DNA from: Candidatus Iainarchaeum sp.
Lineage (GTDB): Archaea > Iainarchaeota > Iainarchaeia > JAGGVJ01
DNA length: 24,371 nucleotides
Direction of reading: 5' to 3'
NCBI GenBank assembly: GCA_021158055.1
Contig: JAGGVJ010000014.1
Coordinates: forward strand, 1-24,371
In this document: positions 1-11,448 of the stretch, piece by piece
How the letters are laid out: each line of letters opens with the position of its first letter
Position numbering within the stretch: the first letter of the stretch is position 1
Position numbers and translations under genes: made by a program
The notes under the pieces: generated by a model
Told to the model about the DNA's origin: nothing
What the model saw: only the letters and a program-made list of their open reading frames with translations
The model's database searches: none

Positions 1-836
1 ATAACTGCAAACGGTCGTTCGCCAACAGCTCTTTTTTTCGAAATTCTGTAATTCCTGTATTTTTGCTTAAACGTCAAATTTCCCCTCATCATATTTGCGT
101 TTCCTTTCGCTTTTGTTTTCGTTCTGGTGTACCATCTGTCACCGTACCGGACTTCGTTTTTGTCATCCAGGTTAATTTTACTGTCATGCACTGACGCTGT
201 TGTAACCTTATATTTTCTTATGAACTGCCTTTCCGAATCAACTTTCACGTGAGACTTGTAACCGTAATGCACCTGATTATTCTTAACTGAAAAAGTAGCG
301 TCCGCATCAATGTGTCGCTTTTGCTTTTCAGTATATTTAACCTTCTCGCCTTTCTTTTTCGCTTTTTTCTCTTTGTAGTGTCTTTTTTTGCCTAAATCCG
401 ATTCAATAAAAGTCGCGTCCTGAATAACCCCATTTTTAACAGCGTAACCTTTGGCATCAAGCTGTCTTTGAAGCTCGCTCCAAATCTTCCTGTCAACACC
501 CTCGTTTTTAAGACGCTCTCTTATCTTCCAAATCGTGCTGAAATCAGGAACGTTCTTTGGAAAATCAAGAAAATTACGAAAACTCAACCTGTCACACACC
601 TGAAACTCAAGCTCCGGGTCAGACAAACCATACCACGCCTGAAGAAGCATAACCCTCACAACCACCACCTCATCAGTATGCGGCCTCCCGCCACGCTCCT
701 TATCATCAAAAAACACACTTGAAACCAAAGGCACAAACGGAGCCCAATCAACCTTATTCTTCATCAAAGAAAGACGATCACCCAAACCACTCACTTTCTT
801 ATAACTATCCCTCAAAACAAACTGACTAAAATCCAC
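1..836 (-). CDS. IS5-family DDE transposase (DUF772 + DDE_Tnp_1 type), 3' end runs off the window
   Basis: Manual translation from GTG at 836 gives MDFSQFVLRDSYKKVSGLGDRL...GGRPHTDEVVVVRVMLLQAWYGLSDPELEFQVCDRLSFRNFL...VPDFSTIWKIRERL...IQDATFIE...HYGYKSHVKVD...TTASVHDS...GDRWY...KRAVGERPFAV, open to position 1. The GRP, LQxWYxLSD, PDxSTI, DAT, GYKxH, HD and ExxF motifs are typical of IS5. Missing from the ORF track because there is no stop inside the window. Confidence 0.92.
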   Translation of the reverse strand, partial: MDFSQFVLRDSYKKVSGLGDRLSLMKNKVDWAPFVPLVSSVFFDDKERGGRPHTDEVVVVRVMLLQAWYGLSDPELEFQVCDRLSFRNFLDFPKNVPDFSTIWKIRERLKNEGVDRKIWSELQRQLDAKGYAVKNGVIQDATFIESDLGKKRHYKEKKAKKKGEKVKYTEKQKRHIDADATFSVKNNQVHYGYKSHVKVDSERQFIRKYKVTTASVHDSKINLDDKNEVRYGDRWYTRTKTKAKGNANMMRGNLTFKQKYRNYRISKKRAVGERPFAV

Positions 837-7441: not shown

Positions 7442-7515
7442 TGGTGCACCGACGGGGAATCGAACCCCGGTAACAAGCTTGGAAGGCTTGAGTCATGCCG
7501 CTAGACCATCGGTGC
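7442..7515 (-). tRNA. tRNA-Gly (TCC), intron-less, CCA encoded
   Basis: GCACCGA/TCGGTGC acceptor stem, D arm TGGTCTAGCGGCATGAC, anticodon arm CAAGC-CTTCCAA-GCTTG, T arm CGGGG-TTCGATT-CCCCG and 3' ACCA. Confidence 0.97.
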
Positions 7516-8113: not shown

Positions 8114-8731
8114 TTATTGATTTTCCTTGTTATGCTTTGTTTTTTTCGCATGCAGGATGTATATAAGTATAATTACTGCGAGTAATGCAAGAATTATTCC
8201 GCTCAAAACTGTCGGGTTTGCTGCAAGAAAAAACAACCCGGTGGGGTTGGCTGTTTCGTTTAATTTTTCACTAAGTTCGTTTCCTTCCCGGCTGTTTTGT
8301 CCTGTTTCGGCTGCTTTTTCTGTTGCGTTCTTTAAGATTTCAGTATTTTCCACAGAAACACTGACAGGTATTTTTATGCCTGCCCTTACATCTGTTTTCC
8401 CGGAATCATTTGAGACAATGAAGAGAGTTGCCTTGAAGTTGCCTTTGATTTTCCCTAAGTCAAGTTGTATTGCTACTTCCGAGGTTTTCTCTTTTTCCAG
8501 TGAAAAGGCATTTGGAAAGGGGGTGATGGCATTTGAGTCAGAGTAGACAAGGTAATCTGATTTTTTTTCACTGTTATTTATTACATAAATTTTTTTCAAT
8601 AGGTCGTTTTCTGAATCAATGTGAACATCCAGATATGCAGGGGTTGCTGCGAGTCCTGCAGCGTTTGCATTGTCTGTTAATAAAAAAAGAAAAAAGAAAA
8701 GGAAAAAGAATTTTATTTTCATTTCGACCAC
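8114..8731 (-). CDS. Secreted Ig-like protein with C-terminal membrane anchor
   Basis: Signal peptide (KIKFFFLFFFLFLLTDNANA; probable start ATG 8722), a beta-sandwich-like region, a low-complexity linker, then TGLFFLA, a TM helix and a basic tail. Co-oriented 34 nt downstream of the 664-aa gene. Confidence 0.75.
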   Translation of the reverse strand: MVEMKIKFFFLFFFLFLLTDNANAAGLAATPAYLDVHIDSENDLLKKIYVINNSEKKSDYLVYSDSNAITPFPNAFSLEKEKTSEVAIQLDLGKIKGNFKATLFIVSNDSGKTDVRAGIKIPVSVSVENTEILKNATEKAAETGQNSREGNELSEKLNETANPTGLFFLAANPTVLSGIILALLAVIILIYILHAKKTKHNKENQ

Positions 8732-8765
8732 TTTTTTTGTTTTTCCTTTTCTGCCTTTATTTCCT

Positions 8766-10760
8766 TTAATCAGGGATTCCTGTGGCGGTTGCCCAGAAAG
8801 TCAATGTGCCTGTTTCTGTTCCTGTTCCAGAGTAATTTTCCGGCGTGTCAAGGCTTGTTGAAACGGTTGACTCGTGTACGAAGTCGCCGGGATCAGCTGT
8901 CAATCCCATGAGGAAGATGTCCCATGGGTTTGCATCCAGCAACAGGTTTTTTGTGTACAGTGTGCCTTCGCTGTCTGTCACTTCTGCTTCTATTTTCAGA
9001 TTCCATGACCCGCTGTTTTTCAGTGTCAGCTTTGTGCCTGAAACATTGTATCCGGGTCCGAATGAGCCGAAATCAATTGACAACGGGTTCACTGAAAAAG
9101 AAACAGCAGGGATGATTACTGAGGTCATCCGGACATCCGAGCTTGTTTGTTCTCCTCCGTCCACGCTGAATTCAAGTTTTTCGCTTCTAAAGTATTTGCC
9201 GTCGGGTTTTTCCGCGTAGACCTGTTTTGCGCCTCCGGAAGAAAATGTTATTGTCGCTGTTCCCAAGTCATCGGTTGTCTGTTCAGAGCTTGCGCCTTTT
9301 ACTGTCGCGCCTTCCAGCGGATGCCATTTGCCTTCGTCTTTGTGAAAGTATTCCACTGTTACGTCGACGTTTTCCCCTGCGTTAGCTTCTGTCGAACCGG
9401 CTGTTATCCTGAGCGCGCTTGCGTTCCAGTCCCCGTAAAACCACACTGCTTTTTCGTGCGGCGGGTTTGGCGGACTGCTTTCCTGCCATATGAAGCTGTT
9501 CACTGAAGTGAACCCGGTTGAATGGTAATCGACCCTTATGTTCCACCCGTCCAGTCCGCTTGCATCATATCCTGCCACGCCGTTCACGTAAAACCCCATT
9601 GCAGGGTACCATTCGTCACTGATGCTCACCGAAAAACTGTTTTCTTTTCCTGCCTGAAGCAATCCCATCAACAGGCTGGGTTCTGTCAGGGTGTATGTTG
9701 TCTGGCTGTTTGAAGACGTGAAGTCAATTGAGTCAGGCAGTTCTATTTCGGTGTCAAGGATTGTCTGGTCAGGTGCTTCTATCCTGATTGCCATTGTGTG
9801 GCTTGTTGCCTGCTGAATGGTTTTTACCGGGTGGGGTTTTCCAAGCAGTGCGTTGACGGCGTTTGCAGTGGTCCACCCGCTTGAAGTCAGTTCCGGATTA
9901 GCGTAAGGGTTGCTGAATCCCCCGTCTGCCTGCTGCCAGTCAAGAATGTAATCAACAGGGTTTGTGCCGTTTTTATCCCACTCGGCTGAAGTGGGGTCTT
10001 GTTCAACTGCTGCAATTGATTCAATTGCGTAAGAGGTTGAATCCGGGTTTGCCTGCCCCCATGAAACGAAGCCGGCGCTACTTGAGTGCTGTTGGGTTTT
10101 CAGATAATCTATTGCGTTCTCTATGTTTGTTTCCGTTTTTGGCTTTCCGGCTGAAACAAGGGCCATTATTGCGGTTGCCGTGCTGTCGGCGTCGCTTGAC
10201 TGGCCTGTGCCCCAGCTCCACCCGTTGTCTGTTCCCTGGTTTGATTCAATGAAATTGACCATTCCCTGTATTTCTGTTGATGAAGCAGGTTCTCCTGCGC
10301 AGATTAATGCGATTACTCCCCAGAAATCATCATTTAGCAGGGTTGAACTTCCCATTTGCGCTTCGCCGTGGTTGTACATTGATTTCAGTTTTGCAACATA
10401 GTCAAGCCCGTTGAAGTTTTTCGGGTCTTTGTCTGCTGCAACGATTGCAATGATCTGCCTTTCAAAGTCTGTTGCTGTCCTGCCTGGGTCATCAAACCAC
10501 AAGGCATCTTTTTTTATGCAGTCAACCAGTGAGTTGTCTCCTGTAGACCATTCGCTTGAGGAAGGGTCTTCACCTGCTGCTGTAACTGCGCTTATCACCC
10601 ATGCGCTTGTTGAAAATCCTCCGATGCACCCGTCGCTGTCCTGCTGTGATTTGAAATAATCCAGTGAGTTTGCTATTTCAGTGTCAGAGGCATTCATCGG
10701 ATAGGCATGAGCCCCGGCAGTCAATAGTAATATGACCAAAATACTTAATGCGTGTTTCAA
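8766..10760 (-). CDS. Secreted transcobalamin-like protein: prenyltransferase/squalene-cyclase-type alpha/alpha repeats + DUF4430-like domain + Ig-like and pilin-like C-terminal domains
   Basis: Signal peptide and TTG start with AGGTGG SD. Repeated (Y/F)xxxQxxDG(G)(F/W) helical-barrel motifs (YFKSQQDSDG, FIESNQGTDNGW, YLKTQQHSSSAGF, YILDWQQADGGF). Then GFYVNGVAG...DGWNIRVD...VWFY (DUF4430-like), PLEGATV...TDDLGTATITF (Ig-like) and a C-terminal GTLTFWAT. Confidence 0.78.
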   Translation of the reverse strand: MKHALSILVILLLTAGAHAYPMNASDTEIANSLDYFKSQQDSDGCIGGFSTSAWVISAVTAAGEDPSSSEWSTGDNSLVDCIKKDALWFDDPGRTATDFERQIIAIVAADKDPKNFNGLDYVAKLKSMYNHGEAQMGSSTLLNDDFWGVIALICAGEPASSTEIQGMVNFIESNQGTDNGWSWGTGQSSDADSTATAIMALVSAGKPKTETNIENAIDYLKTQQHSSSAGFVSWGQANPDSTSYAIESIAAVEQDPTSAEWDKNGTNPVDYILDWQQADGGFSNPYANPELTSSGWTTANAVNALLGKPHPVKTIQQATSHTMAIRIEAPDQTILDTEIELPDSIDFTSSNSQTTYTLTEPSLLMGLLQAGKENSFSVSISDEWYPAMGFYVNGVAGYDASGLDGWNIRVDYHSTGFTSVNSFIWQESSPPNPPHEKAVWFYGDWNASALRITAGSTEANAGENVDVTVEYFHKDEGKWHPLEGATVKGASSEQTTDDLGTATITFSSGGAKQVYAEKPDGKYFRSEKLEFSVDGGEQTSSDVRMTSVIIPAVSFSVNPLSIDFGSFGPGYNVSGTKLTLKNSGSWNLKIEAEVTDSEGTLYTKNLLLDANPWDIFLMGLTADPGDFVHESTVSTSLDTPENYSGTGTETGTLTFWATATGIPD

Positions 10761-10926
10761 GAAACCACCTGTTGCTTGTTTAAAATTTTTGATATGTTGT
10801 TTTTTTCAAAAAGATTATCAATGAAAAAGTTAACAAAAAGATAATATTTTCCAGAATACGAACTTTTTTAAACTACTCTTTTGGATAATAATTATTAGTT
10901 ATTAGTTAATGCTTGATTATTGATAG

Positions 10927-11448
10927 TTGGTGTCTGATTTGGATATTTTCAGGGTTTTGGGCAACGAGAACCGGAGAAAAATTTTGAAGCTCTTGTTTGA
11001 AGAAGAGTTGCATATCAATGGAATTGCAAAAAGGCTCGGTATTTCTGTGCCGGTTGTTTTTAAGCATGTAAAAGTATTGGAAGACAATGAATTGATTGAA
11101 AGAAAGAAAATCGGAAACATGCATGTTCTGAAGATAAGGAGCGCGTATGTTGCCACGATCAGGAAGGTTTTTAATGCGATTGAAAAATCCCATATGATAA
11201 AAGCGGAAAAAGGAGAGACGCTCCTGAGTGTTTTTAAGCGCGTTTCCGGAATCGGATTAAAAAAATCCAAGAACGGTTATTTTGTTGATAGTATTGACGG
11301 AAAAAAAGGTTTTTTTCTGTTTGAGGTAAATGGGAAGATTCCGAACAGGCCGCTGGAGAAGGTGGTGCTGAAGAAAAATTCGGAAGTAAGTTTTTATCGT
11401 TTGACGCCTGTTCTTGGAAAAATATTTGAGATAAACTTGACGGAATAG
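10927..11448 (+). CDS. ArsR/SmtB-type HTH regulator fused to a C-terminal DUF4430/transcobalamin-beta-like domain
   Basis: N-terminal IFRVLGNENRRKILKLL...IAKRLGISVPVVFKHVKVLEDNELI is an ArsR wHTH. C-terminal GETLLSVFKR...GYFVDSIDGKKGFFLFEVNGK...VLKKNSEVSFY matches the DUF4430 pattern (T.L..L...FV..I.G....W.F.VNG......L..GD.V.F). Confidence 0.78.
   Translation: MVSDLDIFRVLGNENRRKILKLLFEEELHINGIAKRLGISVPVVFKHVKVLEDNELIERKKIGNMHVLKIRSAYVATIRKVFNAIEKSHMIKAEKGETLLSVFKRVSGIGLKKSKNGYFVDSIDGKKGFFLFEVNGKIPNRPLEKVVLKKNSEVSFYRLTPVLGKIFEINLTE

Follow-up and report, generated by a model that had tools for sequence, protein, structure and literature searches.

The SLBB superfamily of beta-grasp domains was defined by Burroughs, Balaji, Iyer and Aravind (2007, Biol Direct 2:4, PMC1796856). 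The portions of that paper available to us describe a transcobalamin-like clade, a beta-grasp with a beta-hairpin inserted after the helix, secreted proteins that join an alpha/alpha toroid to an SLBB domain and are linked to CbiO/CbiQ, and, in Methanosarcina, fusions of an ArsR-like winged helix-turn-helix (wHTH) with SLBB that were predicted to be one-component factors whose ligand is B12, one of its precursors or some other compound. Here we describe a locus of Candidatus Iainarchaeum sp. (24,371 nucleotides of contig JAGGVJ010000014.1, assembly GCA_021158055.1, analyzed as a whole and hereafter referred to as the window), in which the gene of a 173-aa regulator is divergent from the gene of a secreted, transcobalamin-like protein of 664 aa. 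The regulator has the same two domains and the same predicted function as the Methanosarcina fusions, and Methanosarcina relatives (loci L065 and L069) were recovered in our survey. The 2007 work, however, was purely computational and, in the portions available, gives no operator, regulon or DPANN members, whereas here a divergent toroid plus DUF4430 pair and an operator are described. The original prediction for this locus, made from the sequence alone, knew of no characterized regulator with this architecture; this claim of novelty was overstated, since both the architecture and the functional prediction had been published, and it is the operator and the regulon that are added here. We favor, with moderate confidence, a reading in which the regulator is a corrinoid-responsive autorepressor that controls an extracellular corrinoid scavenger, a protein analog of the bacterial cobalamin riboswitch.

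Other described systems share single features with the locus. Transcobalamin (TC), intrinsic factor (IF) and haptocorrin, the B12 carriers of animals, are secreted proteins with an alpha/alpha toroid followed by a small beta domain (PF14478), as is the 664-aa protein; they differ from it in sequence (9-15% identity), and the archaeal protein adds a 36-residue insert and two beta-sandwiches, has a toroid nearer to terpene cyclases and no Cobalamin_bind match of its own, and is a putative binder of cobalamin. Bacterial B12 riboswitches control genes of cobalt transport, BtuF, salvage, chelatase and surface binders, and the targets predicted here are of the same kind (cobalt ECF transporter, BtuF-type proteins, salvage, chelatase, surface binders), but the sensor would be a protein on DNA and not an RNA leader. 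In agreement with the original prediction, which saw no riboswitch in the intergenic region, an Rfam scan found no cobalamin riboswitch at gathering score in the window and none at E<=10 in 10600-11100. CarH/LitR and AerR are B12-dependent transcription factors, mainly light sensors, with a Rossmann-type PF02310 domain. They are protein regulators with a corrinoid ligand, as is predicted for the regulator here, which however has no PF02310 domain (none at E<=0.1, Pfam) and would use its beta-grasp domain instead. The ArsR/SmtB metalloregulators CzrA, SmtB and CadC have the same DNA-binding fold (Z 12-14) and belong to the same Pfam family; the present regulator differs in having no conserved Cys or alpha5 ligands, in its extra C-terminal domain and in predicted targets that serve uptake and not efflux. 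In the ECF-like operon of L. sakei (preprint 10.1101/864751), Lsa1839 and Lsa1840 are transcobalamin-like beta and alpha proteins, that is, prokaryotic extracellular toroid and DUF4430-type proteins tied to an uptake system; unlike here, they are two separate proteins with heme as the proposed ligand, and the parts of the preprint available describe no transcription factor with such a domain. MM2441 of M. mazei is an ArsR-type regulator tied to corrinoid methyltransferase genes according to the available part of PMC3510493; as the second, overlapping gene of a two-gene operon it is unlike the Methanosarcina loci found here and, judged by operon layout and not by sequence, is unlikely to be a characterized member of the family. 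The literature searched, on DUF4430, SLBB plus ArsR and transcobalamin-like proteins and more broadly on B12, cobalt, regulators and archaea, yielded no experimental work that took up the 2007 prediction and no report of a member of this family tested as a B12-responsive regulator; the review PMC8123684 has nothing on an archaeal regulator.

As judged by profile comparison and, for the first domain, also by structure, the regulator consists of an ArsR-type wHTH followed by a DUF4430/SLBB domain, the fusion that the original prediction had seen in it. HTH_5 is matched by the regulator (E 5.5e-9, 36.2 bits, cut-off 22) and by 13 of 13 members of its family, and the NCBIfam model HTH_metalloreg (NF033788) gives 52.5 bits, just short of its cut-off of 55. 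The regulator model aligns in VIA-align with CzrA (1r1u_A, Z 14.1, rmsd 2.1, 89 residues aligned) and with the SmtB-type 8qkf_B (Z 13.7); Foldseek retrieves 6cdb_A (E 5.5e-6). The C-terminal domain matches DUF4430 in sequence profiles, as had been proposed: 13 of 13 family members match PF14478 at E<=0.01 (best 2.9e-7), and residues 86-157 match a profile of five secreted DUF4430 proteins (hhalign probability 58, E 9.9e-5). In the AlphaFold2 (AF2) model (mean pLDDT 82.8, C-terminal domain ~80-89) a helix (99-105) is followed by a hairpin (109-114/117-123) and strands 129-134 and 154-159, a predicted order consistent with the definition of the transcobalamin-like clade by Burroughs and colleagues. 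The predicted beta-grasp domain is kept in all 13 close regulator homologs found and in 74 distant members. Translation may start at GTG 10930 or TTG 10939, because relatives begin MDIF or LDIF. One longer regulator in the representative library (P0037, 413 aa) has ~185 extra N-terminal residues ahead of the HTH plus DUF4430 unit.

The regulator gene is preceded, just downstream of a TATA-like element, by an operator with the consensus GATAAT-N4-ATTAyC-N6-GrTAAT. When the spacers of the closest relatives are aligned, TTTTAAA is followed after ~12 nt by GATAATAATTATTAyC and often, 5-6 nt on, by GrTAAT; the spacing of ~20 nt from TATA to site recurs in 9 related loci, and the operator usually ends no more than 30 nt from the regulator start codon. 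It was present in 25/25 divergent intergenic regions, those of L086 and L088 being identical (L086 was the only close locus found in metagenome contigs). The 166-nt spacer contains three copies of GATAAT, where the genome rate would predict 0.12. With a 16-nt matrix built from 16 sites of the phylum, the window's own locus left out, the site at 10884-10899 was the best match in the whole 1.15-Mb genome (19.1 bits), and it was also the genome-wide best for the 28-nt matrix (25.5 bits). At >=11 bits the 16-nt matrix matched 17 of 58 non-DPANN upstream windows and 17 of 1098 controls, some of the latter being real secondary sites. The 28-nt matrix is partly circular, because it was refined iteratively on the regions that it then scored; read with this limit, it scored 51 of 74 loci higher than 99% of random windows and gave 88 matches at >=16 bits in 80 loci, against 2 in reversed sequence. 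The direct repeats further into the spacer, CAAAAAGATTAT (10807-10818) and CAAAAAGATAAT (10834-10845), look like the third half-site ("spacer + GATAAT") and may serve as additional ones. By its place in the sequence the operator would cover the expected transcription start, the classical position of an archaeal repressor site.

Coordinates of the features of the locus (positions are those of the window)
Feature	Position	Strand	Basis or remark
Gene downstream of the 664-aa gene	8114-8731	-	ORF, 205 aa: signal peptide, Ig-like domain, C-terminal membrane anchor
Secreted transcobalamin-like protein gene, divergent from regulator	8766-10760	-	ORF, 664 aa
Signal peptide, residues 1-19	N-terminus of 664-aa protein	-	by eye
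Alpha/alpha toroid, residues 18-308	9837-10709	-	Pfam Prenyltrans/SQHop_cyclase
DUF4430-like beta domain, residues ~354-445	9426-9701	-	hhalign, ortholog L045, structure alignment
Two predicted C-terminal beta-sandwich domains, residues ~450-664	8769-9413	-	AF2 secondary structure
Spacer between regulator and 664-aa genes	10761-10926		166 nt
Direct repeats CAAAAAGATTAT and CAAAAAGATAAT	10807-10845	+	repeat search
TATA-like element TTTTTTAAA	10864-10872	+	starts 20 nt upstream of operator; putative regulator promoter
Best tripartite operator match	10872-10899	-	28-nt matrix
Core palindromic operator GATAATAATTATTAGT	10884-10899	.	kept in related intergenic regions
Regulator gene	10927-11448	+	ORF, 173 aa
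ArsR/SmtB-type wHTH, residues 1-87	10927-11187	+	Pfam HTH_5, NCBIfam, structure alignment
Putative sensor domain DUF4430/SLBB (transcobalamin beta-domain type), residues 88-173	11188-11445	+	PF14478 match 11212-11397

In other archaea, extra copies of the operator sit 20-50 nt upstream of cobalt and corrinoid genes. They precede cbiM in L030, L055 (6 kb from the regulator), L058 and L067; BtuF-like genes in L062, where two sites have cbiZ between them, and in L041, where the site is shared divergently; DUF4430 genes in L053 and L079 and, divergently, in L078; and the DUF2162-ExbB-DUF2149-CobN operon in two Methanosarcina loci (L065, L069). Secreted beta-propeller genes have the operator in L034 and, divergently, in L028, and one operator in L028 lies between the gene of a PKD/cohesin protein and a gene without a family. 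The set of genes that bear the operator resembles a bacterial B12-riboswitch regulon.

The genes next to the regulator were surveyed in 74 loci, counting those up to three positions away; Pfam was run on representatives of neighbor clusters, other members were assigned by BLAST single linkage, and related genomes among the loci are not independent. DUF4430/toroid proteins are neighbors in 17/74 loci, CbiM/CbiQ/ABC ATPases in 8/74 (with CbiN and PDGLE in L067 and CbiZ in L072), Peripla_BP_2 proteins of the BtuF type in 3/74, tetrapyrrole methylases in 2/74, and NikR_C with NicO (L051) and a DUF4430+DUF4198 protein (L034) in one locus each; DUF2162-MotA/ExbB-DUF2149 genes are found in 6/74, followed in L065 by a 1662-aa CobN. 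Counted by hand, clear cobalt, corrinoid or DUF4430 neighbors are present in 31 of the loci, or 37 with the CobN-linked operon. The linkage of HTH-DUF4430 fusions to B12 genes that the original prediction expected was thus found both in these 31 loci and in the extra operators at cbiM, BtuF-like and DUF4430 genes. DUF2149 appears in the literature only in Bacteroidetes/Porphyromonas heme and iron studies and a few unrelated papers; no paper mentioning DUF6580 was found.

The 664-aa protein has the layout of transcobalamin and intrinsic factor claimed for it, a toroid and then a beta domain: in VIA-align the intrinsic factor alignments cover both domains (model residues 17/19..445, 308-311 residues aligned). 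The best Foldseek match of the whole model is haptocorrin (4kki, E 1.2e-6), and TC, IF and haptocorrin align over ~406-443 columns against mostly ~280-390 for cyclases and prenyltransferases. For the toroid itself VIA-align gives Z 19.6 with haptocorrin 4kki and 19.5 with TC 7qbg. No DUF4430 match is found by Pfam in the protein's own sequence, and 1 of 11 members of its family has one (5.1e-4); in the L045 ortholog (36% identical), however, DUF4430 is matched at residues 364-429 (E 1.7e-10, 41.7 bits), a stretch that corresponds by BLASTP to residues ~369-445 of the 664-aa protein. The family as a whole matches the profile of secreted DUF4430 proteins from residue 354 through the motifs quoted in the original prediction (hhalign probability 95.5, E 1.6e-8). 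An insert in the beta domain (401-436) is lineage-specific and has pLDDT <50 in the AF2 model. Cobalamin_bind (PF01122) is not matched by the 664-aa protein in Pfam; the Thermoplasmatales homolog L053 scores 25.2 bits (cut-off 25) and L011 17 bits. Weak CarboxypepD_reg matches occur in 3 of 11 family members. By analogy with transcobalamin, the 664-aa protein would capture a corrinoid outside the cell.

That the two divergent proteins share a small domain had been proposed from similar motifs, all of which are present, GFYVNGVAG (389-397), GWNIRVD (405-411) and VWFY (439-442) in the secreted protein and GYFVDSIDG (117-125), FFLFEVNG (129-136) and VSFY (154-157) in the regulator. When compared directly, the two sequences give a BLASTP E of 3.5, not above chance, and the two family profiles an hhalign probability of 0.25. 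The profile of secreted DUF4430 proteins, on the other hand, bridges both families with the E values given above. Since direct comparison is not significant, the shared domain rests on Pfam, the L045 ortholog and this intermediate profile, and through these intermediates there is good evidence for a DUF4430-type domain in both proteins, and in this form the observation holds.

The pair is conserved well beyond the window. The regulator was found at E<=1e-10 in 33 of 215 genomes of the phylum, and a divergent toroid-family gene in 24 of 30 phylum loci (within the 1.5 kb of flank examined); two of the six loci without it end at a contig edge. Of 10 homologs found for the 664-aa protein, 5 are on contigs equal in length to contigs that carry regulator homologs. 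In a collection of genome contigs 210 relatives of the regulator were confirmed and the best 80 kept for analysis; ORF calling together with a profile recovered a full-length regulator in 74 of these loci, and the other six were left out. The best 80 come from Iainarchaeia and other DPANN, Methanosarcinales, ANME-1, Methanoperedens, Methanocellales, Thermoplasmatales and Hydrothermarchaeota, and in the representative library 17 clusters at 50% identity match the regulator at E<1e-30. The family is widespread in archaea and not a DPANN curiosity. Three short contigs from records titled Chloroflexi, Thaumarchaeota and Falkowbacteria (L003, L012, L014) carry a DPANN-type regulator, a divergent toroid gene and an Iainarchaeia-type operator; they are probably mis-binned archaeal contigs.

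The window belongs to a genome of 1.15 Mb in 45 contigs, 94.9% complete, the sole genome of its order in the collection surveyed; close homologs bear Micrarchaeota/DPANN labels. The three open reading frames and the 166-bp spacer lie where the original prediction had placed them. The 205-aa gene follows the 664-aa gene in the same orientation after 34 nt, and the two probably share a transcript; the product of the 205-aa gene is homologous to the N-terminal part of a 489-aa L045 protein (BLASTP E 9e-12) that, by Pfam, also bears a DUF4430 domain. The genes that flank the locus within the window are housekeeping genes: SHMT, PyrB/PyrI (PyrBI), the RFC large subunit, PheS/PheT and peptidases. 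Between the genes of SHMT and the 205-aa protein there is a tRNA gene (7445-7515, minus strand, 63.6 bits), the sole Rfam match of the window at gathering score. A scan of the window for bacterial sigma-70 promoters and terminators was uninformative for an archaeon. The genome encodes a B12-binding radical SAM enzyme of 899 aa, and no match to CobS, a PduO-type adenosyltransferase or NrdJ was found in it, although at 95% completeness a missing match does not prove that the gene is absent. Across the phylum a protein with a B12-binding domain is present in 31 of 33 regulator-bearing genomes and in 123 of 182 others, by a hand count in which genomes are not independent.

Elsewhere in the same genome, on contig C34 (3353-4577, locus L085), a gene for a 288-aa multi-pass membrane protein without a Pfam family is overlapped at its end by that of a lipoprotein-like DUF4430 protein of 144 aa (73.2 bits). 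A homolog of the membrane protein lies downstream of the toroid gene in L010 (phmmer E 9.5e-30), and the membrane protein may be the transporter of the DUF4430 system. Besides the site of the window, the only intergenic candidates in the genome were two matrix matches, C15:2343 (17.1 bits) and C42:419 (17.9 bits), which were not counted as further operators because the adjoining genes have no Pfam family. Three tandem copies of GATAATTGTTACTATT, 24 nt apart, in an intergenic region of contig C22 (5634-5697) score 13.5 bits each as operator-like matches and are probably an unrelated tandem repeat.

Several gene associations were noted in the other loci. An ADP-ribosylglycohydrolase gene (PF03747, representative E 4.8e-73) is found upstream of the regulator gene, in the same orientation, in 13 of the 37 loci without B12 context, all of the ANME-1/Methanosarcinales type (L017, L018, L024, L025, L027, L029, L031, L035, L036, L037, L040, L042 and L043), and immediately upstream in 11 of the 13; four Methanimicrococcus loci without B12 context have DUF2207, LemA and biotin genes nearby. 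Secreted PQQ_2-type beta-propeller proteins, some with CARDB or dockerin, adjoin the regulator at L028:6124-7890, L034:1362-2900 and L056:770-2326; the surface B12-binding protein BtuG of Bacteroides is also a beta-propeller. At L008:3969-5897 an intein (Intein_splicing E 6.7e-15) interrupts a P-loop ATPase of the ParA/NUBPL type (642 aa).

The domain architectures, the conservation of the pair and the operator with its position and its extra copies at cobalt and corrinoid genes are what the sequences show; binding as a dimer, repression, the direction of the ligand response, a corrinoid as the ligand and corrinoid capture by the 664-aa protein are inferred. The 173-aa protein would be a one-component transcription factor in which an ArsR-type wHTH is governed by a transcobalamin-type beta-grasp (SLBB/DUF4430) sensor. 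Its dimer would bind GATAAT-N4-ATTAyC, often with a third GrTAAT half-site 6 nt on. The site lies ~12 nt past the TATA-like element of the regulator's own putative promoter, where binding would occlude the transcription start, so that the regulator gene would repress itself. From the same spacer the regulator would also set the expression of the divergent operon, which encodes the secreted toroid plus DUF4430 protein and the membrane-anchored Ig-like protein. The ligand of the SLBB domain would most likely be a corrinoid, a cobamide or cobinamide. When corrinoid is sufficient, the liganded regulator would shut the scavenging genes and, in methanogens, ANME and Thermoplasmatales, also cbiMNQO, BtuF-type proteins, cbiZ salvage and the CobN-containing operon. 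That it is the liganded protein which sits on DNA is our guess from the logic of uptake control.

A number of results weigh against this mechanism. Classical ArsR proteins leave DNA when liganded, which is the wrong sign for an uptake regulon. The match of the window's regulator to DUF4430 is marginal (residues 96-157, 22.3 bits in Pfam with a cut-off of 23.8; 23.4/23.9 bits in the genome scan). The profile of its C-terminal domain retrieved no solved structure at E<0.1 from the PDB sequences (best 0.19), structure searches with the whole model (Foldseek pdb, VIA-align) returned wHTH proteins only, and the ESM Atlas gave no usable match for residues 88-173. The toroid is structurally closer to squalene-hopene cyclase (1sqc; Z 24.9, rmsd 2.9, 265 residues aligned) than to TC, IF and haptocorrin (Z 19.5-20.6). 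The whole-genome matrix scan found no second convincing operator in the window's own genome, and the C34 lipoprotein locus has none at >=10 bits. The partial circularity of the 28-nt matrix is a further point, as is the half of the loci (37/74) that have no cobalt- or corrinoid-related neighbor at all. The original prediction of a corrinoid sensor controlling a capture protein is partly supported: the DUF4430 domain, the linkage to B12 genes and the toroid-plus-beta layout speak for it, these loci hold it back, and corrinoid binding and ligand-dependent DNA binding are predicted parts of it. Finally, DUF4430 may not be specific for corrinoids: a reviewer of the 2007 paper questioned such specificity, and the authors allowed for other ligands.

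A more detailed version of the corrinoid-responsive autorepressor, which we offer only tentatively, concerns three histidines of the wHTH. Canonical ArsR/SmtB metal sites consist of alpha3N Cys or of alpha5 His/Asp/Glu, the alpha5 site of SmtB and CzrA lying in the C-terminal helix. Among 75 family sequences no Cys column is conserved and neither canonical site is found, with no ligand column in helix 72-86, and the only columns with at least 30% Cys or His are 29, 47 and 66, where His is invariant or nearly so (1.0, 1.0 and 0.95). These residues may contact DNA, a metal or the cobalt of a corrinoid; three wHTH histidines in a protein that lacks those sites speak against a simple sensor of metal and leave room for a His-cobalt contact. 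A corrinoid might then be clamped between the beta-grasp domain and the wHTH, with His29 or His66 reaching the cobalt in a way similar to the alpha domain of transcobalamin, and so switch DNA binding at GATAAT-N4-ATTAyC. Such a protein could be the long-postulated archaeal B12 regulator, controlling the scavenger in DPANN and cobalt, salvage and CobN genes in methanogens. In 2003 Rodionov and co-workers reportedly described a "CBL-box" as belonging to a hypothetical B12 regulator of archaea; the operator described here may be the same.

Among the alternatives, the one that survives best, although we regard it as unlikely, keeps the regulator and the operator and changes the ligand to another tetrapyrrole or precursor, such as heme, F430 (in methanogens and ANME) or sirohydrochlorin/cobyrinate intermediates, which the secreted protein would scavenge as well. 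Heme was proposed as the ligand of the transcobalamin-like alpha and beta proteins in the part of the L. sakei preprint available (10.1101/864751), a further point against a corrinoid, and Burroughs et al. (PMC1796856) remark, in the portions available, that archaea possessing SLBB proteins are often B12 producers themselves and might be scavenging "a distinct metabolite". In L015 the regulator lies beside HemA/HemB/HemL and a tetrapyrrole methylase, early steps common to all tetrapyrroles. A CobN-type chelatase and CbiM-type transporters could serve nickel, as the NikR_C and NicO genes adjoining the regulator in L051 would fit, whereas CbiZ (cobinamide salvage), CbiN and BtuF-type proteins, whose promoters also bear the operator, are specific for corrinoids or cobalt. 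F430 is not a general ligand, because the family is also found in DPANN and Thermoplasmatales, which are not methanogens. Moreover, the sole solved relatives of the beta domain with the toroid-plus-beta layout bind cobalamin.

We consider it improbable that the regulator is an ArsR/SmtB sensor of Co2+ or Ni2+, with the metal bound at the wHTH, for example by a conserved His, and DUF4430 as an accessory or oligomerization module. The best family match of the N-terminal domain is indeed the ArsR/SmtB metalloregulator model, the three His columns would provide ligands, and operators precede cobalt transporters and the CobN operon. Conserved Cys is nevertheless absent, as are conserved His, Asp and Glu in helix 72-86, and His47, in the recognition helix, is more simply a DNA contact. 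A metal sensor would also leave unexplained both the strict conservation of the beta-grasp domain and the pairing with secreted DUF4430 proteins. Equally improbable is a link to B12 that goes no deeper than homology, the toroid protein being a cell-surface or lipid/terpenoid binder of a host-dependent archaeon and the regulator DUF4430 binding an unrelated small molecule or protein partner: terpene cyclases and prenyltransferases are the nearest structures to the toroid (Z 22-25), relatives give partial TED_complement matches, the neighboring genes in the window (SHMT, PyrBI, RFC, PheST) are housekeeping genes and half of the family loci have no B12 context, but in distant lineages this operator also stands before cbiM, BtuF-like and cbiZ-linked genes, a toroid followed by SLBB agrees with intrinsic factor through both domains, and B12-binding domain proteins accompany the regulator in the phylum, by the hand count of non-independent genomes given above.

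Corrinoids are in heavy use in archaea, both for methanogenesis and by B12-dependent radical SAM enzymes. If the corrinoid-responsive autorepressor is real, it would account for the way in which archaeal cobalt uptake, corrinoid salvage and scavenging are adjusted to supply, and it would be a third mode of B12 sensing, by a beta-grasp domain and not by an RNA aptamer or a Rossmann-type B12-binding domain. The operator of 16-28 nt, the promoter layout and the candidate targets in culturable Methanosarcina and Methanimicrococcus are testable handles. For the genome-reduced DPANN archaea, the locus would point to a dedicated, regulated system that takes the cofactor from the host or community.

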